From the NCBI GenBank assembly GCA_963827235.1, contig CAWHAE010000009.1:384001-448000 (forward strand): DNA of 64,000 bases, read 5' to 3'. The notes under the pieces were generated by a model. The model had not been told where the DNA came from. It saw only the letters and a program-made list of their open reading frames with translations, and ran no database searches. The stretch is from an uncultured bacterium (GTDB lineage: Bacteria; Chloroflexota; UBA5177; JANWHV01). Shown here in pieces: positions 3,770-48,746 of this stretch; position 1 is the first letter of the stretch, and every line of letters starts with the position of its first letter. The position numbers and the translations under genes are program-made.

Positions 3770-5326
3770 ATGCATTCTGTAGCGGACGATCGTGCGGTGC
3801 CATCAACACCCAGAAGCGAAGCCATGCGGCAACTCTATCGGCCGCAATTCCACTTCTCGCCGCCCAGGAATTGGATGAATGATCCCAATGGCCTGGTGTA
3901 TTACGAAGGCGACTACCACCTGTTCTATCAGCATAATCCTGATGCCATGGTGCACGGCACGGAACGGCCAATGCACTGGGGCCATGCCATCAGCACCGAT
4001 CTGGTGCGGTGGACCGATCTTCCGATCGCCTTATCGCCGGATCACCTGGGCGACATCTGGTCCGGATGTGCGGTGGTGGATCATGAAGACAGTGCAGGTT
4101 TGTTCGCCGGTCAGGCTGGGCTCGTTGCCGTTTTCACGCAGAGCCTGGATAGCCTGCAGCAGCAGAGCATCGCCTACAGTAGCGACAAGGGCCGGACCTG
4201 GACGATGTTCCCGGGAAATCCCGTGCTGTCCAATCCTGGTTTGCCCGACATGCGCGATCCCAAAGTGTTCTGGCATGCGCCTGCGAAGCGATGGGTCATG
4301 GTCCTTGCCTGCGGTGACCACGTCCGGCTCTATACGTCGCCGGATCTGATCGGCTGGACGCATGTCAGCTCCTTCGGCCAAGGGCATGGATCCCACGCCG
4401 GTGTCTGGGAGTGTCCGGATCTGTTCTCCTTGCCGGTTGACGGCGATCCAAACGACCGAAGATGGCTGTTGTCCGTCAGCGTGGGAAATGCTCAGTTTAG
4501 CCGTGTCCAGTACTTCGTCGGTCGATTCACCGGTGACGAGTTCATCAATGACGACGCGGCCGGCGTGATCAGGTGGGCCGACTGCGGCGCGGACAACTAC
4601 GCCGCTGTCACGTGGTCGGACACATCTCTTGCGGATGGACGCCGAGTGTGGATTGGCTGGATGGCCTCGCCGTCGTATGCCGAGCGGGTTCCTACGAGTC
4701 CCTGGAGAGGCTGCTTGACACTGCCCCGCTTCCTCGATCTGCATGCAACCGGGCACGGTCTGCGGCTGGCACAGACCCCTGTCCCCGCATTGCGCCAGTT
4801 GCGCGGAGAGGGCCGTCACTGGGCGCACACAACGGTCGTGCCCGGGACAAACCTTCTTTCGGGCACTACAGGGCGAGCACTTGAGTTCGCAGGGCAGTTC
4901 GCGCCGCCGGTGTCGACGGAGTTTGGCTTTCGGGTACATACGAACGGCGAACACTACACAACCGTTGGATACGACTCGAGAACCTCGACGTTGTTCATCG
5001 ATCGAACCGCTTCTGGACTCACGTCCTTTAGCCCGCGCTTCTCAGGCCGTCATGAGGTCCAGCTCCCCTTGCGAAACGGTGCCCTCGAGCTCCAGATCTT
5101 CATCGACTGGTCGTCGATCGAAGTCTTTGGCAACGGCGGTGAGGCCGTGATCACCGATCTCATCTTCCCCGATATCGACGCACTCGGCCTGGAACTCTAC
5201 GCTTGCGGCGGCGAGGTCGCGATCGAGTCCCTGGATATCTACCCCGTTATGTCGATCTGGGAGCCTGGCTCGCCGGTCTTGACCGTGCCCGACACCTGTT
5301 TGGCTGCAGATCCAACCGACCAGTAA
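3770..5326 (+). CDS. Glycoside hydrolase family 32 (levanase / exo-inulinase / beta-fructosidase)
   Basis: WMNDPNG, WSG, RDPKVFW and WECPDLF catalytic motifs; C-terminal beta-sandwich with IDWSSIEVF. Confidence 0.93.
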   Translation: MHSVADDRAVPSTPRSEAMRQLYRPQFHFSPPRNWMNDPNGLVYYEGDYHLFYQHNPDAMVHGTERPMHWGHAISTDLVRWTDLPIALSPDHLGDIWSGCAVVDHEDSAGLFAGQAGLVAVFTQSLDSLQQQSIAYSSDKGRTWTMFPGNPVLSNPGLPDMRDPKVFWHAPAKRWVMVLACGDHVRLYTSPDLIGWTHVSSFGQGHGSHAGVWECPDLFSLPVDGDPNDRRWLLSVSVGNAQFSRVQYFVGRFTGDEFINDDAAGVIRWADCGADNYAAVTWSDTSLADGRRVWIGWMASPSYAERVPTSPWRGCLTLPRFLDLHATGHGLRLAQTPVPALRQLRGEGRHWAHTTVVPGTNLLSGTTGRALEFAGQFAPPVSTEFGFRVHTNGEHYTTVGYDSRTSTLFIDRTASGLTSFSPRFSGRHEVQLPLRNGALELQIFIDWSSIEVFGNGGEAVITDLIFPDIDALGLELYACGGEVAIESLDIYPVMSIWEPGSPVLTVPDTCLAADPTDQ

Positions 5327-5456
5327 TGGTTGTAAGCAGTGATCGAAACAGAGGGACAAGTGTCGCAGCCAGCCGCTCGAGGTCCGGATAGACGAAAGCA
5401 ACTACAATTCGTTCGCGACGATCACTACGCATCGGACGACCACCCCATGTCCGCGT

Positions 5457-6015
5457 CGCACCTCGCTCGGCCCCATGTCCGCGTTCGCGATCAGGCCTGT
5501 CCCGGCAAAGCGCGCCTGCTGCCGCTCCCGCGCCGCCTGCACCGCATGGGACGGCTCGCCCTGGCTCTCGCCCGTCAGCTTCTCGTACTGCACTCGCGGC
5601 ACTTCCACGTGGATGTCGATGCGGTCCATCAGCGGCCCCGACAGCCGGTGCTGGTACTTCGCTATCGCCCCCGGCGAGCACGTGCACTCCCGCACGCTGT
5701 CCCCGGCATAGCCGCACGGGCACGGGTTCATCGCCCCTACCAGCATGAACTTGGCTGGAAAGGTCACCGAGCCATTCACCCGGCTGATCGTCACCGTGCC
5801 GTCCTCCAGCGGCTGCCGCAGCACTTCCAGCCCCGCCTGGCCGAACTCCGGCAGCTCGTCCAGGAACAGCACCCCCCGGTGCGCCAGCGAGATCTCGCCC
5901 GGGCGCGGCCAGCGCCCGCTTCACATGCTCCTGGCCGCGCACCGCGGAGAAGTCCACCGCCGGGCTGGGCTGGACGTCCAGGTCCAGAGCCAGGGGCGTG
6001 GCTACCGCCGTGTCA
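5457..6015 (-). pseudogene. comM: Internal comM/yifB fragment (copy 1) with 12-bp and 245-bp internal deletions
   Basis: 5457-5919 aligns to 12335-12809 (about 4 substitutions by eye plus a 12-bp deletion), then jumps via the 11-bp repeat CCAGCGCCCGC to 13044 onward; Walker A is lost. Confidence 0.9.
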
Positions 6016-6021
6016 CGCCGC

Positions 6022-6501
6022 CTACTGACCCTGCACGACGAGCGTGTAGCAGCCCTGGTTGTGCAGGGTACAGCTGCCGGCACGCAGCTGCACGCTGTAC
6101 ACCGCCGGCTCATTCCAGTCCACAGGAGCCGGGCCGGTGCCGCGCGTCAGCAGGCTGCCCACGACCGGCACCCGGCGCAAGATGTTCCAGGTCGAGTCGC
6201 CCGCCTGCACTTCCAGGGGAAACTGGACGCCCGCATTCTGGGTCGCATCGTCGAGAAGGAGCGCCTGCAGATAGCACAGGGTCACGCTCGGCGCACAGGG
6301 ATAGAGCTCGACGGCCGTGCCGCGGACCAGCAGCGTACGGCCAACCCAGGCAGCCGGGTTTCGCGCCAGCCCGGCAGAGATCTGCGCCACGCTGTACACC
6401 GGCGCGGCGGCAAGCGGCCGCGCCGGCAATGGCCGGGGGCGGAGCCACCAGGTCGCCAGCCCGGCGCCGAGCAGGAGCACCAGAGCATATCTCATCCTCA
6501 T
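6022..6501 (-). CDS. Hypothetical membrane-anchored/secreted protein
   Basis: MRMRYALVLLLGAGLATWW signal/anchor, then VYSVAQ..WVGRTLLVRG and paired Cys; stop codon abuts the comM fragment. Confidence 0.6.
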   Translation of the reverse strand: MRMRYALVLLLGAGLATWWLRPRPLPARPLAAAPVYSVAQISAGLARNPAAWVGRTLLVRGTAVELYPCAPSVTLCYLQALLLDDATQNAGVQFPLEVQAGDSTWNILRRVPVVGSLLTRGTGPAPVDWNEPAVYSVQLRAGSCTLHNQGCYTLVVQGQ

Positions 6502-7035
6502 CAGACTGACCCTGCCAGCCCGGTCCTTCAATCCTCCGCGCTTGCGGACGGCGCATCCTGTGCTGGCGGCTGACCGCGCAGCCAAGGTCTCGCAGCCCGG
6601 ACATACTGGTCCGCCGCCCCAGACCCTGCGCGTGCCGAGCGATCGGCACAGCCGGCGGAACGGGCGCGCTGCCCGTGGCGGCTCTGCAGGCAAGACCAGC
6701 GTGCCGGATTACCAATGCGCTTCCCCTACCGGTGTACCACCACGCGACATTGTGCGACGCTCTCAAGGACCGGCAAGCGGCTGGGTCTCCTGTCGCCTTC
6801 AGCTTCCAATTGCATTGCTCGAACTGTGGGCAGAGGCGCTGCGCCGCGTTGATAGCGGATATCCTAGCGTTGATGGTGGAGTCGAGGAATGACACCATTG
6901 CAGAGACCTTGACCAAGGCCGAAGAGTGGAAAAGCCCGAGAGACCCTGCGGGTCTCGTCACCGTCGTGGAGGCATCGATGTCAGGGTGCACCGCTGGCAC
7001 ATCTTGGGACAGAGCAACGCGGCAAGGAGTAGCCG

Positions 7036-7923
7036 ATGGCGATGAACGTAACTAAGGCGGTGATCACGGCGGCCGGGCCCGGTCAGCGCACCCTGCCGGT
7101 CCAGATGCTCATTGACCGCGATGGCGTCGAAAAGCCTCTGCTCCAAATCTTCGTCGAGGAAATCGTGAGCGCCGGGATCGAGGAAATCGGGGTGGTCGTG
7201 GCCCCCGGAGATGAAACGTCGTACCAGGAGGCAATCGGCGACCGGGATGGCTTGGGCCACGGTTACCGCGGCGCCAACGTGACGTTCATCTGCCAGGAAC
7301 GTCCTTTAGGGTATGGTCACGCCGTCTACTGCGCCCGCGACTTTGTCGGCGGCGAGCCCTTCCTGCACCTTGTCGGCGATCACCTCTACGTCTCCGGGAG
7401 CGAGAAGTCGTGTGCCCGTCAGCTGGTCGAAACAGCCAGCGCCCAGGAATGCGCCGTCTCGACCGTGCAGGCCACGCGGGAGAGTCTGCTCCCCTACTTC
7501 GGCGCCATCGGGGGCCGCCGCATCCAGGGACGCCGCGAGCTCTACCTGGTTGAGACGGTTATTGAGAAGCCGGCGCCAACCGAGGCGGAACTCAGGCTTG
7601 CCGTCCCCGGCCTGCGGGCTGGGCACTACCTCTGCTTCTTCGGCATGCACGTGCTCACACCCACGATCATGGAGATCCTGAGCGATCAGCTGGCAGAGGC
7701 CACGGCCGCGACCACGCTCTCCGCGGCATTGGCCAGGCTCGCCGAGCGAGAGAGATACCTGGCTCTCGAGGAGCACGCTTGGCGGTACGACGTCGGCGCC
7801 AGGTACGGCATCTTCAACGCGCAGCTTGCCCTGGCGCTCAGTGGGAAGGACCGCGCCGAGGTGCTCTCGTTGCTCCTCGAGCTGGTGGCGCAGCGGGACC
7901 TCGGCGCAACGCAGAGGTCATGA
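7036..7923 (+). CDS. GalU-like sugar-phosphate nucleotidyltransferase
   Basis: [37 protein letters not shown] and VIEKP motifs of the NTP_transferase family; AAGGAG RBS. Confidence 0.85.
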
Positions 7924-10900
7924 TGAGCGGGCAACTCGTCGAGATCCTCACATCTACCGACCCGGCAGTTCGCAACCGATCACTCGATGCGTGCTGCAGA
8001 ACGGCGTCGCTGGCCGAGCTTCAGCGCGAATGCGCGGACCTGGAGGCCCTGCGGCACACCAGTGCCAATCTCTACGAGCGCGTGCGCGCACTGTTCTTCC
8101 TGTACGCCATCCACCGCTTCCACGTGCCGGCCAAGCTCACTGGGCCAGCTTCTGGGCTGATTCCCTATGAGGGCTATGCTCGCCTGCTGCAGCGGCGCTT
8201 CGAAGAAGCGATAACGGAGTTCCTCGGCGCCGGACGAAGCTCTGGCAATAGCGCAGCGATTTCCAGCGCCCTGGCCGAAGCCTACCGCCGCCTCGGTTTG
8301 CAGACGCTGGCCGATCAAGTGCGCCGAAGCGTCCGCTCGGTGCGCGGCAATCAATGGATGTTCCGCGTCGGCCATCCCATGGACCAGCCACTTCGCGTGC
8401 GCCACGAACTGGTGGAGCGGTCGCCAGATGGCCTGTTCCCGATCCTCCATGAGGCAACGCCGGTCCGCATGGACCTGAACCACTGTGCCTGGAGCGACAT
8501 CTTCTTTCTCGGGATGGATTATCCCGAGGGCGCCCGCGTGCTGAACGTCTCGATAGACCTCGCGGTCCGTGGGCGCGAGCCTTCCCCGCGCCCACCCGTG
8601 GAGGCATACTTCCGCGTCATCGACGAGCCTGTCCTCCGCCTGGCGAGCGTGGATCTCGGCGCCACGGCAGAGATAAAGAGCCTCGCCGAGGTGTTCGACT
8701 ACGCCGCCGACTACCTCGGCCTCCTCAAGGCCGCGGTCATCGCGTCTGGTCTCGTTCCTCCTGGGATCGAAGGCTCCGGCGAGCGCCTCGAGGACCTGCT
8801 GGCTCGTGTTGCCGGCGAAGGCAAGGGTATCGAGCTCGTCAGCCGTGTCAATGGCATCCCAAAGGGCTCGCGCCTCGCGGTGTCGACCAACCTGCTTGCC
8901 AGCCTGATCGCGGTGTGCATGCGAGCAACCGGCCAGACCGCCTCGATGGTTGGCGAACTCGCCGAAAGCGAGCGGCGCATCGTGGCGGCACGCGCCATTC
9001 TGGGCGAGTGGTTGGCGGGCTCGGGCGGGGGATGGCAGGACTCGGGCGGGGTCTGGCCCGACATGAAGCTGATCACCGGCGTTCTGGCCTCACCGGACGA
9101 CCCAGAGTACGGCATCAGCCGCGGCTGTCTCTTGCCGGTGCACCACATCCTCACCGCGGACGAGGCGTCGGACGACACCCGCAGCCGCCTCCAGGACAGC
9201 CTGGTGCTCGTCCACGGCGGCATGGCGCAGAACGTCGGACCGATGCTCGAGATGGTAACCGAGAAGTACTTGCTGCGCTCCGAGGCCGAGTGGGCCGCGC
9301 GGCAGGAGGCCGGCGCCATCCTGGACGAGATCCTTGGCCTCCTTCGCACGGGCGACACCCACGCCATCGGCGCCGCAACCACGCGCTGCTTCCTCGGGCC
9401 CATTCGCACGATTGTCCCACGTGCGACAAACCTCTTCACCGAGTCGCTGATCGATCAGGTGCGAGCTGAGTTTGGCGAAGCGTTCTGGGGCTTCTGGATG
9501 CTCGGAGGAGCCTCCGGAGGTGGGATGGGCTTCATCTTCACGCCGGAGCGGCGAGATGCCGCGAAGGACCGCCTCCAGGAGATCATGCTGCAGACGAAGC
9601 GGCGCCTCGAGCACGCGCTGCCCTTTGCCATCGATCCGGTGGTCTACGACTTCGCCATCAACACGCGGGGGACGGTTGCCGACTTGCGCTCGGGCGGCTC
9701 GGCCCTGATGCCGTCCGGCTACTACCCGCTGACCATTCCCGGACTCCTCCGGCAGGACCCGCTCAGTCTTGCGCAGGGACGCCGCGTCGAGTTAAGCCGC
9801 GTCGGCATGGTCTGCCGCACCCAGCCTGAGTTCTCCGGCATGGTGCAACGGATCTTCGACCGGGTCATGCCTGAGCCAGGGCATGAAGATGGCAACGGCC
9901 AGAGCCTGCACGACCTGCTCGCCGCACTCGGCTTCGACCGCATCCAGCACGAGCAAATCCGGGCGGACCTGCGGAGCGGCCGTATTGGCCTGGCCCAAAA
10001 CCGGCTACCGGCGCGGACCGTCATCCGCGACGCCGAACCGGGCGACGTGGCCAGCCTCGTGGCGCTGCCGGAACTCCGGACCTTGCAGGAGCGCGGCCGG
10101 CAGCTGGTGGGCGAGGGTGCCGCCGCGGTGGTCACGTTCGCCGCTGGCGTCGGCAGCCGCTGGACCGAGGGAGCAGGTGTGGTCAAGGCGCTCAACCCCT
10201 TCGGCAGGCTCGCCGGCAAGCACCGTACGTTTCTCGAGATCCACCTCGCGAAGAGCCGGCGCCTCGGCCGGGAGTGCGGGGTGGCCTTGCCACACGTCGT
10301 CACTACCAGCTTTCTGACCGATCAGCCGATCCGGGATTTCCTCGAATCCCACGACCGCTACGGCTACGGCGGACCACTGGTACTCTCGCCCGGGCGGAAT
10401 GTCGGGTTGCGTCTGGTGCCGATGACGCGCGACCTGCGCTTCGCCTGGGAGGAGATGCCCCAGCAGCTGCTCGATGAGCAGGCGCAGAAGGTGCGGAAGA
10501 GCCAGCGTGCGGCGCTCATCGGCTGGGCCTTGCAGTTGGGTGAGGGCAGCGACTACACGGACAATGTGCCACTCCAATGTCTCCACCCAGTTGGCCATTG
10601 GTTCGAGTTCGCCAACATGCTCAGGAATGGTGTCCTGGCGCAGCTCATCGCGGAGCGCCCCACGCTGCAGGTGCTGATGGTGCACAACATCGACACGGTG
10701 GGCACGGACGTCGATCCGGCGCTCCTTGCGTGGCATCTCGAGACGGAGGTGGCCATGACCGTGGAAGTGATCCGGCGGTACGTCGAGGACCGAGGCGGTG
10801 GCCTGGCCCGCGCCGATGGACGCTTGCGGCTGGTTGAGGGCCTGGCCATGCCGCGTGAGCAGGACGAGTTCAATCTCACGTTCTATAACACGGGCACGAT

Positions 10901-11243
10901 GTGGCTACATGTCGACCGCGTTCTGGCGGTCTTTGGGCTGACGAGGGCCGACCTCGGCGACGAGGAGCGCGTCGCGGCAGCGGTACGGGCAGTGGCGACG
11001 CGCATGCCGACGTACGTCACGCTGAAAGACGTCAAGAAACGTTGGGGACAGGGCCAGGAGGATATCCTGCCGGTGGCACAGTTCGAGAAGCTCTGGGGCG
11101 ACATGACTGCTCTGCCCGAGCTGGAGTGTCGCTATGTTGAGGTGCCGCGGCCACGCGGGCAGCAGCTCAAAGACGTCGCCCAGCTCGATGGCTGGCTCCG
11201 CGATGGCTCCAGCGACTACGTCGCCTCGATCTGCGCCTTCTAG
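7920..11243 (+). CDS. Fusion protein: GHMP-kinase-like (fucokinase-like) domain + UDP-sugar pyrophosphorylase (UDPGP/USP-like) domain
   Basis: [25 protein letters not shown] and MLGGASGGG (GHMP-like); [26 protein letters not shown] and QFEK (UDPGP-like); ATGA overlap with the upstream gene. Confidence 0.78.
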
Positions 11244-11417
11244 CGAGGAGCCGTATGCAAACCACACGTCGCGTGGCAGAAGCCCTTCTCCGGTGGGGAA
11301 ACGGTCGGCGTTGTCCAGGGCTGCGTTGCCGCGTTTCCTCAATGGGCGGAGTGTACACCATGGCATAGATACCTCGAATACTGCGGTAGACGGGCATCGA
11401 ACGACTGGATAGGCTCC

Positions 11418-11576
11418 TCAGGAAGTCAATTCGTCGATGAAGGTAGCCGGCGACGCCTGGAAGTACTCCGCCAGCTTCTGCACGTGCGTCATGGCCAGTC
11501 GACGCTTGTTATGCAGAATCTCGGACACGAGTGATCGTCGCCCCAGTACCGGCACGAGATCGGCCTGTCGGAGGCC
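11418..11576 (-). pseudogene. higA: C-terminal HTH remnant of HigA-type antitoxin
   Basis: Manual translation [52 protein letters not shown] resembles the HigA Xre-HTH C-terminus; the 5' part is replaced by the comM fragment; not in the ORF track. Confidence 0.7.
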
Positions 11577-11824
11577 CGGACAGCCGGTGCTGGTACTTCG
11601 CTATCGCCCCCGGCGAGCACGTGCACTCCCGCACGCTGTCCCCGGCATAGCCGCACGGGCACGGGTTCATCGCCCCCACCAGCATGAACTTGGCCGGAAA
11701 GGTCACCGAGCCGTTCACCCGGCTGATCGTCACCGTGCCGTCCTCCAGCGGCTGCCGCAGCACTTCCAGCCCCGCCTGGCTGAACTCCGGCAGCTCGTCC
11801 AGAAACAGCACGCCCCGGCGCGCC
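11572..11824 (-). pseudogene. comM: Internal comM/yifB fragment (copy 2), Walker B to SGP
   Basis: 11580-11824 aligns to 12531-12775 with 6 substitutions counted by eye, 4 of them synonymous. Confidence 0.92.
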
Positions 11825-12036
11825 GCCAATCCCTGTTCCGGATCCCAACCCAGGTGCAGTGCCTTGGACTCAAGATAACGATCGATGAGAGACAGGAGCG
11901 CGCTCTCCAGGACGCCATGCATTCCCTTAGGTGGCGGTATTTCCCGTATCGCTCCCCGCACATATTCATGCAGGTTCCCGTTGTCGGGTAACGCCAGGAA
12001 CTCTTCGAAGCTGTGGTGTCTTCGCTCTGCGACCAT
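11825..12036 (-). pseudogene. N-terminal part of Uma2-family endonuclease, fused in frame to comM fragment
   Basis: [41 protein letters not shown] resembles the Uma2 N-terminus; the catalytic PD-(D/E)xK half is absent. Confidence 0.7.
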
Positions 12037-12141
12037 GCCTATCCCTCGCGCTACAAGCACAGTGTCCGCGTCCCGTATCACCTTGGACCTGTACAGAAGC
12101 GCGCAAATGTGCTGGACTGGAACAGGCAACGAGTGGGATAA

Positions 12142-13659
12142 CTACACTTGCTTCCGCGCCCGATACTGCAGCGCCTCGGCGGCGTGAATGGCAGCGATCG
12201 TCTCCGCACCCGCCAGGTCCGCGATCGTCCGCGCCAGCTTCAGCGTGCGGTGGTAGGCTCGGGCACTCAGGTGCAGCTGCTGCATGGCCGATTTCAGCAG
12301 CCCCTGCGCGCTTGCCTCCGTCAGGCAGTACTTGCGCACCTCGCTCGGCCCCATGTCCGCGTTCGCGATCAGGCCTGTCCCGGCAAAGCGCACCTGCTGC
12401 CGTTCCCGCGCCGCCTGCACCCGCGCCCGCACCGCATGGGACGGCTCGCCCTGGCTCTCGCCCGTCAGCTTCTCGTACTGCACTCGCGGCACTTCCACGT
12501 GGATGTCGATGCGGTCCACCAGCGGCCCCGACAGCCGGTGCTGGTACTTCGCTATCGCCCCCGGCGAGCACGTGCACTCCCGCACGCTGTCCCCGGCATA
12601 GCCGCACGGGCACGGGTTCATCGCCCCCACCAGCATGAACTTGGCTGGAAAGGTCACCGAGCCATTCACCCGGCTGATCGTCACCGTGCCGTCCTCCAGC
12701 GGCTGCCGCAGCACTTCCAGCCCCGCCTGGCCGAACTCCGGCAGCTCGTCCAGGAACAGCACCCCCCGGTGCGCCAGCGAGATCTCGCCCGGGCGCGGCC
12801 AGCGCCCGCCGCCCACCAACCCCGCGTTGCTGATCGTGTAGTGCGGCGCCCGGAACGGTCGCTCACGCACCATCGGCTGGTCCGGCGAGAGCATACCAGC
12901 CACCGAGAAGATCTTCGTCGCTTCCAGACTCTCCTCCGGCGTCATGCGCGGCAGGATCCCGGGCAGCGCGCGGGCAAGTAGCGTCTTGCCCGCGCCCGGC
13001 GATCCACTCATCAGCACGTTGTGCCCGCCGGCCGCAGCGACCTCCAGCGCCCGCTTCACGTGCTCCTGCCCGCGCACCGCGGAGAAGTCCACCGCCGACG
13101 TCGGTTCCACGTCCAGGTCCAGCCCCATCGGCTGCGCGGGTGCGATCGGCCTGTCACCGCGCAGATGCCCGACCAGCGCCGCCAGGTTCTCCCCCGGGAT
13201 GATCGTCATGCCTTCGACCAGCGCCGCCTCCGCAGCGTCGACCGCCGGCACGAACACCGTGCTGATCCCATGGTCCCGCGCCAGGGCCACCATGGGCAGG
13301 ATGCCGTTGGTGTGCCGCAGGGCCCCATCCAGCCCCAGCTCCCCCAGGAACAGGCACCCCGTGTCGTCGAATACGATCTGCTCACCCGCGCGCAGCACGC
13401 CCACTGCCATCGGCAGGTCGTACGATGGGCCTTCCTTGCGAATGTCTGCCGGCGCCAGGTTGACTGTGATGCGCTTGAGGGGGAAGCTGAGCCCGGAGTT
13501 GCGGATGGCGGCGCGCACGCGCTCCTTGGCCTCGTTGACCGCCGCGTCGGGCAGTCCCACGATGGTGAAGGCGGGCAGCCCGTTGGCCAGGTCTACTTCC
13601 ACCTGCACGAGGGCGCCGTCTAGGCCGACCACCGCGCATGACTGCACCATCGCCAGCAT
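12142..13659 (-). CDS. comM: ComM/YifB Mg-chelatase-like AAA+ ATPase (competence helicase)
   Basis: IVGLPDAAVNEAKERVRAA, VNLAPAD, GSPGAGKT (Walker A), [34 protein letters not shown] and LSARAYHR..ARTIADL motifs. Confidence 0.96.
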   Translation of the reverse strand: MLAMVQSCAVVGLDGALVQVEVDLANGLPAFTIVGLPDAAVNEAKERVRAAIRNSGLSFPLKRITVNLAPADIRKEGPSYDLPMAVGVLRAGEQIVFDDTGCLFLGELGLDGALRHTNGILPMVALARDHGISTVFVPAVDAAEAALVEGMTIIPGENLAALVGHLRGDRPIAPAQPMGLDLDVEPTSAVDFSAVRGQEHVKRALEVAAAGGHNVLMSGSPGAGKTLLARALPGILPRMTPEESLEATKIFSVAGMLSPDQPMVRERPFRAPHYTISNAGLVGGGRWPRPGEISLAHRGVLFLDELPEFGQAGLEVLRQPLEDGTVTISRVNGSVTFPAKFMLVGAMNPCPCGYAGDSVRECTCSPGAIAKYQHRLSGPLVDRIDIHVEVPRVQYEKLTGESQGEPSHAVRARVQAARERQQVRFAGTGLIANADMGPSEVRKYCLTEASAQGLLKSAMQQLHLSARAYHRTLKLARTIADLAGAETIAAIHAAEALQYRARKQV

Positions 13660-13881
13660 CGGACCGCTTCCTTCCCGCTACGCCGGAAAGTGTAGCATAG
13701 GGCGTGCGCAGGGAAGGCCGCAGTCGCCGGGAATGCTGTGAAATATCGCAACCGGGATCGTCCGGTCAGGCGGGGCGCCACACCGCCTTGGCGGCGCGAC
13801 CTGGAGTGGGCACGCCGGGGCTTCTCGGTCATATCCAGAGCCCACGCTGCCCGGCAGCGAGAGCAGCCACTCACCCGGGCA

Positions 13882-16053
13882 TCAGAGGGCCTCGATCAGC
13901 AGCAGCTCCGAGGTAAGCGGGCTTTCCAGGCGAATCTCCAGTCCGTCGCGGCGCAGGTCCAGGCCCGTGAGCTCGACGCACTCGCCGGTATTGTCCAGCT
14001 GCACCCGGTAAGCCCGGCCATCGCGCAGGCCGCGTGGTCGATAGCAGTAGCGACCTGGATCGGGCTCGGTCAAGCGGAAGATCCCGGCCACTTCGCTCGA
14101 GCCGTCGGGTGAGGCGTATTCCAGCACGCACCACGGCCGCGGCCGGTCCAAGGGTAGCACGGGCGTGTGGTGATAGACCCTGGCGTCGGGCAGGATCGGG
14201 CGAATGAACTCCTTATAGAGACGTACGGCGTGTGCGATCGTGGCGCGGCGTGGCTCGCCGAGCTGGTCCGGAGACGGCGCGATCCCGCGGAAGATCGGAT
14301 GGGCGAACAGGCAGGAGCGCAGCAGGTAGTCGAGGTCGCCGTACAGGTAATTGTCCGGAAACTCGGTGCCGAAGGTGCGCAGGCAGATCTCCGGCGGCAG
14401 GTGCAGGCTCAGGCCGTTCAGGATCTTGAGCGAACGCGGGGCAGGCATCCAGTCCGAGATCTCGGTGATCTGGAAGTAGCGCAGCATGCCGAGATCCAGC
14501 CGGCCCCCGCCTGAAGCGCAGTTCTCGAAGATCACTCCGGGGAAACGCCGGCGAAGGCGCTCGAATATGCCCCAGATCGCTTCCACGTGACGCCAGATCG
14601 TGTTCTCGAGGAAGCCGTCTCGCAGCCGGTTGCCGCCCTCGTAGACGTGGGTATTGTAGTCCAGGCGAAACACGTCGAGCCCGTATTGCGCGATGATCCG
14701 CACGAGCTCGGCTTCCATCCAGCCGGCGACCGCGGGATTCGCCACGTCTAGGTGCCTTCCTTTCCCCACCGGCTCGCCGTTGCGGGTCAGCACCCAGTCC
14801 GGATGTTCCTTGAGCAGCATGGAACTGGCGCCGATGCTCTCGATTTCGACCCATAGACCGAACAGCAAGCCTTTATCGTGGGCATGCCGGACCAGAGGAT
14901 GGAGATCGTTCGGCAGCCATGCCCCGGCGTACCAATCGCCGACGTTGTCGGCCCAGCGGTTTGGCTCTGGTCCGTACCAGCCGGCATCGATCATGAAGAT
15001 CTCGGCGCCGATCTCGGCGGCCATGTCGATCTCGCGCATGATCCCACCCTCGTCTTCGTGGTCCGAAAGGTAGCCGCGATGGTTGGCTTCGATCAGCTGC
15101 GACTTGCCCGGCAATTGTGCCGGCAGTACGGCGGAACGAATGTGGTCGTGCAGCGCCTGGACACAGCCGTCCAGGTCCGCATGCAAATGCCCTATGTGTA
15201 CCGCCGGGACGCTGACCGTCTCGCCGGCTTCGATCACGCGCAGGGTGGGGTCCGCGGCGAACGGCCCTATCTTGACGAAGAGCCTGGCATAGCGCGCCCG
15301 ATCGTCCTGTTCGACGGTGATCTCGTACCGCCAGTTGCCGCTCCAGGCCAGCTCTCCGATGAAGGTCTCGCCGGTGACCTCGTTTCTGAGCATGAACGAC
15401 GGCCGGCCGTGTCCGGAACGGCCCATCCTGCCCTCGACGACCTTCGTGCCGGCGCGCAACGGCTCCCAGCGGAAGTCGCCCTCTCTGAGAGGGCTCGAAT
15501 CGACGAAGTAGCCCAGGCTGAACACCGATCCCGAGCCGCCCTCGGGCAGGTTCTCGGCGAAATCGCGAATCCACCAGAGCAAGCCGGCAAACGGGGCAAC
15601 GGCCGACAGCGAGACCGGTCGCGCCCCGGTATTGGTCACGCTCAGCCAGCGCTCGAGAAACGGGCTGCCGTCGAAGCGCGTGTGCACTGTCACGCCGGCG
15701 TCGCTCGACTGATGCGCGAGCTCGATCGCCAGGTGGCGCGATCCGGGACGATCTTCGGCGATCTCCCGGCTGGCAACCCATTGCCAGGCGCTCTCGAGCA
15801 GCAGGTTGCCGATGCGCAGATGGAATGCCTCGGTAGGCAGGATGTCGACGATCTCCCGTTCCTGCTCGATGGCCTGCCAGGGCCTGATCGTCCCGTTCGC
15901 CGACCAATATCTGCCGATGAATCGGCCGCTGCTCAGCTCTTCGTCATAGATGGTGAGACCGGATCTGTAGCAGACGCCTGGCGAAGGTGCGGAGCGCAGC
16001 TCAATCGCCGTGTCGGCCTCTTCATTGAGGCGGTTGATAGGCAACCGTGGCAT
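13882..16053 (-). CDS. Alpha-galactosidase, GH36
   Basis: FMIDAGWYG, GDW, FGLWVEIE, FRLDYN, ENCASGGGRLDLGML and ISD motifs; GAAGGAGA RBS before ATG at 16053. Confidence 0.88.
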   Translation of the reverse strand: MPRLPINRLNEEADTAIELRSAPSPGVCYRSGLTIYDEELSSGRFIGRYWSANGTIRPWQAIEQEREIVDILPTEAFHLRIGNLLLESAWQWVASREIAEDRPGSRHLAIELAHQSSDAGVTVHTRFDGSPFLERWLSVTNTGARPVSLSAVAPFAGLLWWIRDFAENLPEGGSGSVFSLGYFVDSSPLREGDFRWEPLRAGTKVVEGRMGRSGHGRPSFMLRNEVTGETFIGELAWSGNWRYEITVEQDDRARYARLFVKIGPFAADPTLRVIEAGETVSVPAVHIGHLHADLDGCVQALHDHIRSAVLPAQLPGKSQLIEANHRGYLSDHEDEGGIMREIDMAAEIGAEIFMIDAGWYGPEPNRWADNVGDWYAGAWLPNDLHPLVRHAHDKGLLFGLWVEIESIGASSMLLKEHPDWVLTRNGEPVGKGRHLDVANPAVAGWMEAELVRIIAQYGLDVFRLDYNTHVYEGGNRLRDGFLENTIWRHVEAIWGIFERLRRRFPGVIFENCASGGGRLDLGMLRYFQITEISDWMPAPRSLKILNGLSLHLPPEICLRTFGTEFPDNYLYGDLDYLLRSCLFAHPIFRGIAPSPDQLGEPRRATIAHAVRLYKEFIRPILPDARVYHHTPVLPLDRPRPWCVLEYASPDGSSEVAGIFRLTEPDPGRYCYRPRGLRDGRAYRVQLDNTGECVELTGLDLRRDGLEIRLESPLTSELLLIEAL

Positions 16054-16366
16054 AATCGTGTCTCCTTCATTCGTGAGCCGCGGTCCAGCGGAGGCGTGTG
16101 CTTCTCTCAGGCACATATCGGGTCGCTTCGCCGCGCGAGGCAGCATGCAGTGCCATGTGTGTTATACCGCTCGCCACCCCGATTGGCCGGCACCAGCGCT
16201 GCCGGATTTGCCGCGTGCCTTACTCATGAATTGGCCGGCCTACGCCGTCCGCGGCCGGGCGATGCGGGCAGCGACAACCGCGGTCGATCTCGCCATGGAG
16301 CGCGTGCGCACGGGCATCGCGCAGCCGCGGGCATCGCGCAGCCGCACCGGCAGGCAGCGGCGCGTC

Positions 16367-47005: not shown

Positions 47006-48668
47006 ATGAGGGCAGAGAGATGGCCCCAAGGAAGGCAGGCACCAGTGGCAGCACCAGCACGACGGCCCGTCCAGCGTCCAGTCAGCGCAACCCGTGCGGC
47101 GGGATATCTCCGGGTATCCACAACGAAGCAAGGCGACGGGTTCAGCCCGGAATTGCAGGAAGAGGCAATCACCACCTACGCGGCGGATCATGGCCTAGAT
47201 CTTGTGCTTGTTGAACGTGACTTTGAGAGTGGACACCACAACGAACGGCCTGGTTATCAGCGCCTGCTAGGCATGATCCGGAGTGGCTACGTCGGCACGA
47301 TCATCGTGCACCAGCTTGACCGGTTGGGAGAGACAACAGCGGAACTGATGGTACGCCTGGAAGAGATGGAGAAGCTAGGCGTCAAGCTGATCTCGGTCAA
47401 GGAAGGCAAGCAAGAGCCCGGTATCCTGTTCGACGTGCTTGGGAGCATGGCCAAAGAATACTCGCGACAGCTAGGGAAGAAGGGCGCGACCGGCATTGGA
47501 GATGATGAGCGCGGCAAGGCGTGCACCACGGTGTTGTGCCGACAGGCTACAAGCTGGTGTACCCTGAGCGGATCGGAAGCGGGCGCTACCAGAGTGGCGT
47601 AATGACATCTGATGACACAGCACCATTTGTCCGCGAACTGTTCAGAAGTACGCGGACGGCATGTCACAGCGCTACTTGGCGCGATGGGCGAATGAGCCAG
47701 GACACCCGGCAGCACCGAAGAGTGCGGCATGGTCACGTGACACCCTGGCGCACCTGTTGCGCAACCGCACCTATCTTGGCGTAGTCGAGTACAACAAGCG
47801 GGCTAAAGGCCGGTTCAGTCAGTGCAACCCTGAAACGGATCGCTTCGTGGTCAAGGCCGATCACGAACCATTGATCGACCAAGCGCTGTTCGACCGCGTG
47901 CAAGCCCGGATAGCGGACGCGACCGAACGGGGCTTCCATGGGAAGAGAGACGAACGTCCGGAACCGCTGCTAGCGGGTGTCCTGCGGTGCGGATCGTGCG
48001 ACAGCAAGATGACCGTGCTGCGATGTGCGGATGAAGCGAAGCGGCAACCGCTGTACCTGTGGCGGGGAACGCGAGTGGTGAGATGACGTGCGAGACGTCC
48101 GCGATCACCATGGACGTAGCAGACAGGCCGTGCTGAACCAGATCCGCCGCGTGCGGTTCGTAGACAACTGGACGCGAGTACGCTTCAGCCGGTCGTGAGT
48201 GAACCCGATCCCCGTGACTTGCTGACCAAGCAGCTTGCCGCCGCACGGGCCAAGATGGAGAAGCTAAGCAGCGGCTTCATGCTGATGGTTGCCGAAGCGA
48301 GCGACGCGGAGAAGCAAGCCTACCGGAAGATCGCCAATGCGCTGAGCGATGAGATCATGGCACTGGAGCAAGCACTACGCGATCTGCCCAGCGCGAAGCG
48401 TGCGACAGAAGACGTCGAGGCATGGCGTGCAGAGTTCAGCAGGGTCGACCTAGGCGGGCTGATCGACGGGCTGCTAGCGACCGATCAGCGGGGCAAGCTG
48501 CGGCACGGGATCGCGGGAGTGGTTGACCAGCCACGATTGATGATCGCTTCCCGGAGAAGCGTTCGACGTGGGCACACGCTAGCGTCACGTGGTCACCCAA
48601 CCTTCAGGCTTTGGTTGACGCGGGTAGCGCTGTCCTGGCAGACGACGATCCGGGACCGGAGCGGTTGA
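47006..48668 (+). pseudogene. Large serine recombinase/integrase (multiple frameshifts)
   Basis: GYLRVST.KQ, ESG..RPGY, HQLDRLG, P.GY, LLRNRTYLG, HEPLIDQALFDRVQ, LLAGVLRCGSC and a coiled-coil C-terminus, spread over ORFs 47006, 47521, 47661 and 48195. Confidence 0.88.
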
Positions 48669-48746
48669 CCAAGCAACAACGCCGCTCCGTGGCAATGCGC
48701 AAGTACCGCACGAAGGTGCGTGGACAGCAATAGCACCGTCATTCTG

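Follow-up and report, generated by a model that had tools for sequence, protein, structure and literature searches.

Partial copies of comM downstream of an intact comM gene in an uncultured Chloroflexota bacterium: eroded borders and a possible origin in serial insertions

We analysed a window of 64,000 nt (contig CAWHAE010000009.1) from the genome of an uncultured Chloroflexota bacterium, hereafter G000. Its comM gene is intact, and past the end of this gene the comM strand carries two dead, incomplete copies of it, with other genes and gene pieces in between. The features of the region are, in the direction of comM transcription:

13689-13697, minus strand: putative extended -10 promoter box TGCTACACT, at which conservation between species and fragments starts
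12142-13659, minus strand: resident comM, intact (505 aa; domains ChlI, Mg_chelatase, Mg_chelatase_C)
11830-12129, minus strand: Uma2-family nuclease gene, N-terminal third (match to positions 1-53 of the 172-position Pfam Uma2 profile, E 3.2e-5)
11573-11824, minus strand: comM fragment 2 (gene nt 885-1136, aa 296-379; 97.2% identity)
11418-11555, minus strand: C-terminal piece of an HTH_3 (antitoxin-like) gene, a 45-aa ORF (HTH_3 positions 23-53 of 55, weak E 0.0098)
6816-11242, plus strand: sugar-nucleotide cargo block (Pfam NTP_transferase and UDPGP matches, NCBIfam galU-like matches)
7779-11243, plus strand: ORF of a ~1100-aa protein with a UDPGP domain, within the sugar-nucleotide block
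7036-7923, plus strand: GalU-like nucleotidyltransferase, within the sugar-nucleotide block
6022-6693, minus strand: ORF of a hypothetical "secreted protein" with a hydrophobic N-terminal stretch (GC3 0.82)
5457-5992, minus strand: comM fragment 1, a composite of 1A and 1B
5909-5992, minus strand: comM fragment 1A (gene nt 533-616; 85-87% to resident)
5909-5919, minus strand: 1A/1B microhomology joint GGGCGCTGG of 9-11 nt, an out-of-frame fusion read directly from the sequence
5457-5919, minus strand: comM fragment 1B (gene nt 851-1325, aa 284-442; ~99% to resident)

The resident gene has the N-terminal ChlI domain, central AAA+ core and C-terminal Mg_chelatase_C domain of a ComM/YifB Mg-chelatase-like AAA+ helicase (PF13541, 2.3e-46; PF01078, 9.6e-93; PF13335, 2.9e-31), and GSPGAGKT and DELPEF (Walker A and B) are readable in its translation. 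Its product is 92% identical in amino acids to that of the sister genome G001. Homology between the two genomes ends exactly at the comM stop codon and, at the other end, ~38 nt before the ATG. Ahead of the gene, G000, G001 (resident and two fragments) and G003 are similar only from the box TGCTACACT on, which suggests a promoter. The resident comM genes of G000, G001, G003, G059 and G037 show no seam of divergence.

The earlier note on this DNA described comM fragments past the end of the intact gene and oriented like it. They are real and non-identical, and their joints are unique. Searched with blastn, the window has three matches to comM besides the gene itself, all on the comM strand: 11573-11824 to comM nt 885-1136 (252 nt, 7 mismatches), 5457-5919 to nt 851-1325 (4 mismatches and one 12-nt gap) and 5909-5987 to nt 538-616 (88.6%). 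The rest of the 8-Mb genome holds no comM piece beyond two 44-nt matches at 82%. The core common to both fragments, from Walker B to HRLSGP, was also recognised correctly and corresponds to nt 885-1136. In fragment 2, five of the differences from the resident gene are synonymous and two are non-synonymous, so that they are indeed mostly synonymous. At 4 of these 7 sites, all of them synonymous, the fragment keeps the state of the G001 comM; of the fragment's own three changes, two are non-synonymous. Only 951 nt separate it from its source region in comM.

Fragment 1 had been taken as a single piece with a divergent 5' end. The divergent end stands, as 1A differs from the resident gene by 13-15% (dS 0.38), far above 1B or fragment 2; the single piece does not, since 1A and 1B are two pieces joined out of frame. 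Their blastn matches overlap by 11 nt at the joint, and gene nt 617-850 are absent between them. Across this lost interval, which includes the nt 645-653 site described below, identity leaps from 85-87% to ~99%. Among 8 copies compared, the nearest to 1A is the G000 resident comM. Fragment 1B runs with 2 mismatches over 376 nt, then an in-frame 12-nt deletion, then 2 mismatches over 86 nt, and terminates at a short local GCGGACATGGGG repeat.

The fragment borders fall at comM nt 533, 616/851, 1325, 885 and 1136. The four borders of the two fragments are all secondary junctions, made with the truncated Uma2 gene, with the truncated HTH gene or by deletion, and the outer limits of the two fragments differ (851-1325 vs 885-1136), both being deletion joints. 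Since every border is a secondary deletion joint, no common breakpoints, for which a check had been proposed, are readable in G000.

The genes between the fragments are in part truncated as well. The Uma2 piece is present as first reported, yet it is not an N-half and covers about the first third of a ~206-aa protein; a full-length 206-aa relative in locus L139 reveals the cut point. It is fused in frame to fragment 2 and forms a chimeric ORF (11509-12129). The HTH_3 piece begins 17 nt past the end of fragment 2 and was reported as a HigA C-half. An HTH_3 piece does exist there, and the HigA label is not sustained: the Pfam match of this short ORF is weak and NCBIfam gives no match. What had been read as toxin-antitoxin and nuclease cargo thus consists of gene fragments. 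The sugar-nucleotide block is 90% identical to G001:C10:1306950-1311371, which is on a separate contig and not beside the G001 comM, in agreement with the expectation of strain-variable cargo; the flanks of this G001 copy map onto other G000 contigs. The hypothetical protein at 6022-6693 has no Pfam or NCBIfam family and no DNA match in G001-G004.

Recombinase and transposase families find no match among the 10 ORFs scanned in 3770-16146, so the array has none, as the earlier note stated. This does not extend to the whole window, as a frameshifted gene for a large serine recombinase (LSR; gene criterion Resolvase plus Recombinase, with or without Zn ribbon) lies at 47006-48706, 33 kb from comM and with no comM piece beside it. 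No tyrosine recombinase was found near comM (the nearest PF00589 match on the contig is at C9:939169), and no Tn7-like genes were found at the comM locus. Inverted repeat pairs of at least 30 nt number 0 in 5000-14000, and the suggested likeness to an integron fails because this interval has no attC-like inverted repeats. The array is without evident function at present.

As the proposed check of related genomes shows, the pattern recurs. G001 contains an intact comM and at least 8 comM fragments on the same strand, a larger array than in G000, and its 5' fragments flank the intact gene on both sides. Five of the 8 stop within gene nt 640-653, and the sequence that follows them is of three different kinds. 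Relative to the resident gene the fragments have diverged by 5-18% (dN/dS 0.09-0.33), and for 5 of 6 tested dN/dS is under the 0.55 expected of a decaying local copy (P 3e-6 to 0.03). Therefore they diverged as parts of working genes in other lineages, that is, as alleles under purifying selection. Fragment pairs within this array can be near-identical (99.2% over 257 nt). A G001-kind element-end motif was sought in G000 and none occurs. Moreover, comM arrays account for short-read bins of this genus breaking inside comM: the G003 contig ends at comM nt 1262 and the G004 contig starts at nt 1441.

Across Chloroflexota, comM is cut at fixed positions, namely ~aa 197, aa 217 and aa 347-350 (nt ~590, 645-653 and 1040-1050). 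An LSR gene lies at the comM break at 5 junctions in 4 genomes (G006, G293, G281, G339). For example, the G006 comM has its cut at the codon seen in the G001 fragments (HNVLM|) and a 621-aa LSR overlaps the break; by eye, a dyad CACAAC...YTGTG is common to this junction and one G001 junction type. In the closed genome G293 the cut is at aa 350, with a 528-aa LSR overlapping it, and in G281 a 520-aa LSR begins ~100 nt from the 3' comM fragment. G339 is cut at ~aa 197 and ~aa 350 with an LSR on each cut, one of them 48% identical to the G293 LSR. When displaced 3' comM fragments were read at DNA level, 12 of 13 start within codons 346-351, and several are preceded by related element ends, e.g. 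TTTTGTTAC| and GATTGTGTAC|. Intact comM with displaced fragments and no recombinase is also found in G059, G034, G013, L049 and L060; in G059 (closed genome) the fragments lie 38 and 58 kb downstream. None of the G000 fragment borders coincides with the three sites: the aa 347-350 site lies unbroken inside fragments 1B and 2, as does the aa 197 site inside 1A.

From the above, we infer, tentatively and with considerable doubt, that the G000 array represents eroded scars of serial insertions at comM, with LSR-type elements as the most likely agents. The region downstream of comM would then hold the remains of at least two past insertions, and probably of three. Each event may have put DNA beside or into comM, kept an intact comM and stranded an older partial copy further downstream, and subsequent deletions would have pared the copies and their neighbours (Uma2 and the HTH gene) to the current fragments. 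The likeliest agents would be site-specific elements of the LSR kind that dock in comM of related Chloroflexota; they would bring a replacement comM piece, and their recombinase and diagnostic ends would since have been lost.

Several points speak against this reading. LSR recombination alone does not duplicate its target, and the elements would have to carry several hundred nt of replacement comM; such a piece is presumed from the arrays, and no intact element here was seen carrying any. The ~99% identity of fragment 1B demands gene conversion or a very recent copy, and 5' fragments on both sides of the G001 gene are unforeseen by simple serial insertion. The resident genes examined above, moreover, carry no seam of divergence. 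Finally, the G000 borders are off the sites, the fragments cross them, ends of the G001 type are absent and there is no recombinase within 33 kb.

Some of these same features are expected if the capture was driven by homology and required no integrase, which the earlier note had proposed. In that scheme comM-bearing DNA, e.g. a circle looped out between repeats in a donor, recombines into the 3' half of comM through one RecA-type crossover, leaving an intact gene and a partial copy beyond the cargo, and repeated rounds give an array. Fragments that traverse the LSR sites unbroken without element ends, in an array without a recombinase, fit it. Two other G000 loci also share the layout of gene, cargo and 3' copy: tilS is followed 9.2 kb downstream by a 352-nt copy (93.5% identity), and a Zn-dehydrogenase gene, after 11 kb, by one of 1021 nt (99%). 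Their repeats are long, highly similar and extend into non-coding flank, and no recombinase is among the ORFs scanned. The same genome has an Rhs-like orphan array (G000:C8:5-28 kb), and Rhs orphan arrays are a known product of homology-anchored replacement; the near-identical G001 fragment pairs show ongoing recombination between repeats. However, to leave an intact gene the incoming piece must reach the stop codon, and neither fragment passes nt 1325, so erosion has to be assumed here too. This route leaves unexplained the fixed-codon ends, seen in 5 of 8 fragments in G001 and in 12 of 13 displaced 3' fragments in relatives, and the repeated use of comM, and not of any conserved gene, across the phylum. 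Nor did the one low-depth public run examined yield a circular or polymorphic form. Nothing shows that homologous recombination built the array, and the breaks in relatives are at fixed codons with LSR genes. We regard this route as a serious but rather unlikely one and lean towards LSR-driven insertion for the G000 fragments.

A further step would make the comM pieces the working recombination substrate of an integrase-free cassette platform, in which comM-flanked DNA is looped out, taken up and re-inserted at comM by homologous recombination, with the same logic at tilS and the dehydrogenase gene. If true, the platform would be tied to a gene whose product drives the recombination of incoming DNA in transformation; we think it quite improbable.

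Slightly less probable still is that the fragments are local junk, i.e. neighbouring comM pieces copied as filler or small segmental duplications during error-prone break repair in a deletion-prone accessory region, with no need of a mobile element or foreign DNA. The deletion-type borders, one with 9-11 nt of microhomology, and the short distance of fragment 2 from its source agree with this. The G001-state sites of fragment 2, all synonymous, and its own mostly non-synonymous changes fit an old local copy, and dN/dS tests of the G000 fragments against the decaying-local-copy model are not significant (P 0.09-0.5). The divergence of fragment 1A, however, far exceeds that of 1B or fragment 2, comM arrays occur in G001 and other families with fragments diverged under selection, and the same core would have to have been captured by chance at least twice, with the copies 6 kb apart and pointing the same way.

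It is very improbable that the array is an assembly artefact in which a variable region from two strain haplotypes was joined in tandem at comM sequence common to both: the genome is large (8 Mb vs 4.4-5.4 Mb in sister genomes) with an estimated contamination of 9.06%, the repeats are 97-99% alike and read support for a joint is one exact 151-nt contig with only 26 nt on one side, yet that contig, from a low-depth public run and perhaps from the source sample, does span the Uma2/fragment-2 joint (11799-11949), the assembly has 21 contigs of megabase lengths, internal pieces joined to truncated unrelated genes, one with an internal deletion, are unlike a haplotype join, and the independent G001 assembly has a like array with fragments 5-18% diverged.

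By itself the G000 locus is a decayed accessory region of little import, and mostly ordinary, its gene being already known as a favourite landing site of mobile elements. The wider pattern is more useful: serine-recombinase elements interrupt the comM of Chloroflexota at three fixed codons, and several genomes have intact comM alongside stacks of stranded comM pieces and cargo without a recombinase. Should the elements bring along a replacement for part of comM, they would amount to serine-recombinase islands able to mend their own target; if true, this would account for the survival of a competence gene that is a universal landing pad.

Among known systems, Tn7-like transposons of the AbaR/Tn6022 type in Acinetobacter also make comM a hot spot for resistance and accessory islands; they insert by transposition with a 5-bp target duplication and disrupt the gene, whereas the G000 locus has no Tn7-like genes. 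Target-rebuilding elements (phage 21/e14 at icd, SXT at prfC, tRNA islands) likewise leave their target gene intact, with a partial copy stranded beyond the island. Their tyrosine integrases are within the element and the stranded copy reaches the gene end, whereas the G000 copies stop at nt 1136 and 1325 of 1518 and no integrase is present. In orphan Rhs/CDI modules, displaced pieces of a conserved gene accumulate downstream with new genes between them, as here, and homology in the conserved part is the accepted route. What Rhs arrays swap, however, is a variable toxin tip together with its immunity gene; comM lacks any variable module, and the cargo, unrelated to comM, comprises sugar-nucleotide enzymes, a hypothetical protein and gene fragments instead of core, toxin tip and immunity gene. 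SCC/SCCmec at rlmH of staphylococci forms composite islands, including recombinase-less pseudo-SCC, and the enterococcal cassette chromosome is grouped with such SCC-type comparators. The likeness lies in serine recombinases, docking in the coding end of an intact housekeeping gene, tandem accretion and cassettes that lack a recombinase of their own; in SCC the repeats are short att sequences (tens of nt) at the very 3' end, in contrast to the 250-470-nt internal pieces with eroded borders in G000.

In the same phylum, the Dehalococcoides ssrA islands with the serine recombinase DsiB stack at a single-copy essential gene and have direct repeats of the target 3' end, as described in the pertinent passages of PMC3146451, which also discuss SCC/CcrB; according to these passages they differ in targeting a tmRNA gene, retaining a six-gene integration module and having short repeats. 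The comM/Mg-chelatase-like family is already known as the top LSR target: such genes are the target of 12.4% of predicted site-specific LSRs, the commonest one in the sections of Durrant et al. 2022 (PMC10083194) that treat target genes. LSR elements in Mg-chelatase-like/comM (yifB) genes, including sr1WO of phage WO in Wolbachia, use the same target gene family, and in the parts of PMC10083194 and PMC9203015 that describe them they split the gene and carry the recombinase, unlike the G000 locus, which has an intact comM, duplicated partial copies, no recombinase and borders off the sites. The relatives G006, G293, G281 and G339 do resemble such elements, with an LSR gene on the comM break at fixed motif-coding positions.

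The gene comM of the window belongs to a genome of 8 Mb in 21 contigs (G000; the window is C9:384001-448000), and as a query it retrieves Chloroflexota relatives, mostly labelled Anaerolineales. The earlier note had placed comM fragments downstream of the intact gene in the same orientation, and this is borne out by a blastn search of the window with comM as query, which gives three additional same-strand matches downstream of the resident copy; a repeat search recovers the same repeat families. When the whole genome was searched, no comM-like sequence was found elsewhere besides two weak 44-nt matches. The array is composed as follows, with gene nt denoting comM coordinates.

12142-13659, minus strand: intact comM for a 505-aa protein complete in its three Pfam domains
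11509-12129: ORF in which a Uma2 nuclease gene, cut down to its first third and lying upstream, is fused in frame to fragment 2
11573-11824, minus strand: comM fragment 2, gene nt 885-1136, 97.2% with 7 mismatches (blastn)
17 nt beyond the end of fragment 2: C-terminal piece of an HTH_3 gene (weak match, E 0.0098)
Between the fragments: sugar-nucleotide block of a GalU-like enzyme and a UDPGP-domain protein of roughly 1100 aa
Between the fragments: hypothetical protein
5909-5987, minus strand: comM fragment 1A, blastn match to gene nt 538-616, 88.6%
5457-5919, minus strand: comM fragment 1B, blastn match to gene nt 851-1325 with 4 mismatches and a single gap of 12 nt
3770-5326, plus strand: GH32 gene on the far side of the array, adjoining fragment 1

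Fragment 1 is a composite, in which nt 533-616 (85-87% identity) and nt 851-1325 meet out of frame at a GGGCGCTGG microhomology. In fragment 1B, a stretch of 376 nt with 2 mismatches is followed by an in-frame deletion of 12 nt, itself flanked by short repeats, and then by 86 nt with 2 mismatches; the fragment stops at a small local repeat. All five joints, four outer and one inner, are therefore secondary deletion-type junctions. Ten ORFs around the array were scanned without a match to a recombinase or transposase family, which agrees with the earlier note. A metagenome search with the Uma2 piece returned one full-length relative, without comM nearby. For the GH32 gene, G+C (0.58-0.63) and GC3 are both below the surroundings.

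In the sister genome of the same genus (G001), comM shares 85.5% DNA identity with the G000 gene and stands in a larger array.

G001, C8:18875-20392: intact comM

At least eight fragments on the same strand are found to either side of it and at the terminus of contig C7. Five of the eight terminate at gene nt 640-653, just ahead of the Walker A codons, and the other three at about nt 75, 449 and 502. Three distinct sequences follow the common break; TTGTGAAYACAATC... was seen twice, as was the start of an RHH-PIN pair. The cargo between fragments comprises parDE, RHH-PIN, methyltransferase, and sugar-uptake or URO-D-like genes, and 43 ORFs of the array, picked by a GC3 filter, had no match to a recombinase family. 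In one interval (L027:435-1485; G001:C8:20435-21485), nothing but a parE-type toxin gene and about 350 nt stands between intact comM and a comM 5' fragment, which amounts to a cassette of roughly 0.7 kb. The LSRs (large serine recombinases) of G001 and of a further genome of the genus, G003, are far from comM, and synteny of G001-G004 with G000 is too scrambled for defining empty sites.

The G001 fragments are 80-95% identical to their resident comM, and the members of one pair share 99.2% identity. Measured against the resident gene, the fragments have dN/dS values of 0.09-0.33, where the orthologue pair of G000 and G001 has 0.10. In five of six fragments tested the value falls under the expectation for a local duplicate with decay in one lineage (P 3e-6 to 0.03); they diverged within working genes. 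The same tests on the G000 fragments are not significant (P 0.09-0.5). With G001 used for polarisation, four synonymous differences of fragment 2 arose along the resident lineage, and its own changes number three, of which two are non-synonymous. The reading of the fragments as foreign alleles is therefore solid for G001, and its G000 support comes mainly from fragment 1A (dS 0.38).

The break common to the G001 fragments recurs in G006, a genome of the same class, whose comM ends at that codon, HNVLM/ (the slash marks the break), overlapped by a 621-aa LSR with Resolvase, Recombinase and Zn ribbon domains; a search for relatives of this LSR in the genome contig collection found only its own record. 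A second break site lies at the AM/NPCPCG codons. Among 13 displaced 3' fragments with junctions read by eye (one each in loci L049 and L060 and in G013, four in G034, two each in G293, G281 and G059), 12 start within codons 346-351, and several are preceded by related element ends. The closed genome G293 has its comM interrupted at aa 350, where the break is overlapped by a 528-aa LSR with a tyrosine integrase next to it; in G281 a 520-aa LSR begins about 100 nt from a displaced 3' fragment. The comM of G339 has two cuts, at about aa 197 and aa 350, with an LSR on each, the LSR at the latter being 48% identical to that of G293. Altogether, an LSR stands at a comM break at five junctions, in four genomes of four families.

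In all four cases with the LSR on the 5'-fragment side (L124:7663-9528, L133:3609-5195, L140:2153-3868, L140:11341-12936), its open frame extends about 70-230 nt into the comM fragment, so that the C-terminal tail of the integrated form is encoded across the junction. In L140 (G339:C24:13000-27000) and L141, each LSR continues at its 3' end into the comM piece, in antisense to it. The insert at the first cut of G339 measures 8.5 kb and has a gene for a Prim-Pol/D5-type primase as well.

The combination of an intact comM, stranded 3' fragments and no recombinase was found in L049, L060, G034 and G013 (Pfam scan of ORFs) and in G059 and G037 (local tblastn); in G059, a closed genome, the fragments lie 38 and 58 kb downstream. 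This arrangement implies elements that would bring a replacement part of comM. The proteins adjacent to junctions (299, 512 and 212 aa in G001, 430 aa in L060, and in L049) belong to no Pfam or NCBIfam family, hence no recombinase was found among them. The comM copies of G059 and G037 are 76-81% alike (one pair 90.7%), with no readable direction of 3' replacement, and no divergence seam was seen in the resident comM of G000, G001 and G003.

The phylum-wide search gave a comM match in 361 of 401 genomes, with at most three candidates per genome scored among the matches listed, and 15 genomes were chosen for having at least two comM matches among those listed. Three of the 15 (G180, G364 and G380) were rejected as multi-copy genomes, being split alignments of one gene. 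Within the genome contig collection, only 4 of 80 comM loci have an additional comM match within about 10 kb.

That the G000 fragments are eroded scars of site-specific insertion is a tentative reading, to which we give slightly under an even chance. Their fit to the fixed-site LSR pattern is poor in detail: they run uninterrupted across both the site at aa 197 and that at aa 347-350, no element ends were found at them, and the G001 junction motifs are absent from the G000 genome save one unrelated 12-mer. The sole hint of a site-specific origin is that fragment 1 is 85-87% identical on one side of the deleted interval 617-850 and about 99% on the other, the nt 645-653 site falling within this interval. 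Among the LSR and tyrosine-recombinase matches of the genome (4 and 25, respectively), the only one near comM is an LSR.

Window 47006-48706, plus strand: frameshifted LSR gene, with its Resolvase domain in one ORF and its Recombinase domain in another

Per segment, this gene matches an intact 589-aa LSR at about G000:C9:1120762 at 33-62%, and no comM piece lies beside it.

The earlier note had instead proposed capture of cargo at the comM 3' half by homology and without an integrase, a model that is somewhat unlikely and stays alive through two other G000 loci laid out as gene, cargo and 3' copy, with no recombinase in the ORFs scanned, and through a Rhs-like orphan array.

G000:C10:236578-247368: intact tilS, whose 3' end is repeated 9.2 kb downstream over 352 nt at 93.5%
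G000:C10:143955-156536: Zn-dehydrogenase gene, with a 1021-nt, 99% copy 11 kb away in direct orientation
G000:C8:5000-28000: Rhs-type orphan toxin-tip array of about 8 directly repeated units, each 500-750 nt long, at intervals of 2-5 kb

The tilS locus has the layout of the comM locus, and MCP, GGDEF-HD and unknown genes without a recombinase family match lie between gene and copy. The Zn-dehydrogenase copy comprises the 3' two-thirds of the gene plus 357 nt of downstream flank, and the repeats flank NB-ARC/HTH, GMC-oxidoreductase and MFS genes. The Rhs-type repeats encode YD/Rhs core ends, followed by differing tails. Taken as a whole, the earlier note's interpretation is supported in part.

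It is improbable that the fragments are local junk. An assembly artefact has very little chance: each piece comes from the interior of a gene and abuts other genes that are truncated, and the independently assembled sister species has the same kind of array, so the array is probably genuine. Short contigs of one low-depth public run (7% of words), which may come from the source sample, neither bridge nor contradict it; the best exact contig, 11799-11949, crosses the Uma2/fragment-2 joint but reaches just 26 nt past it on its shorter side. Two short-read bins of the genus end within comM (G003:C185 end, nt 1262; G004:C561 start, nt 1441), which would be expected were comM pieces also repeated in these bins. 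The likeness to an integrase-free integron drawn in the earlier note is dropped, as the repeat search found no inverted repeats of at least 30 nt in 5000-14000, and a Tn7-like reading is ruled out by the lack of Tn7-like genes among the G000 and G001 ORFs scanned.

The preference of LSRs for a comM-type gene is already published: Mg-chelatase/ATP-dependent-protease homologues are the target of 12.4% of predicted site-specific LSRs, and LSR targets are enriched in competence genes (PMC10083194). The Wolbachia Mg-chelatase gene is the integration site of phage WO sr1WO (PMC9203015), and in Dehalococcoides, of the same phylum, islands stack at ssrA via a serine recombinase that is compared with SCC (PMC3146451). 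A literature search, supplements aside, found no account of recombinase-less stacks of comM pieces beside intact comM, nor of LSR elements rebuilding comM. Compared with the known target-gene islands, the G000 locus is a worn, recombinase-less variant.
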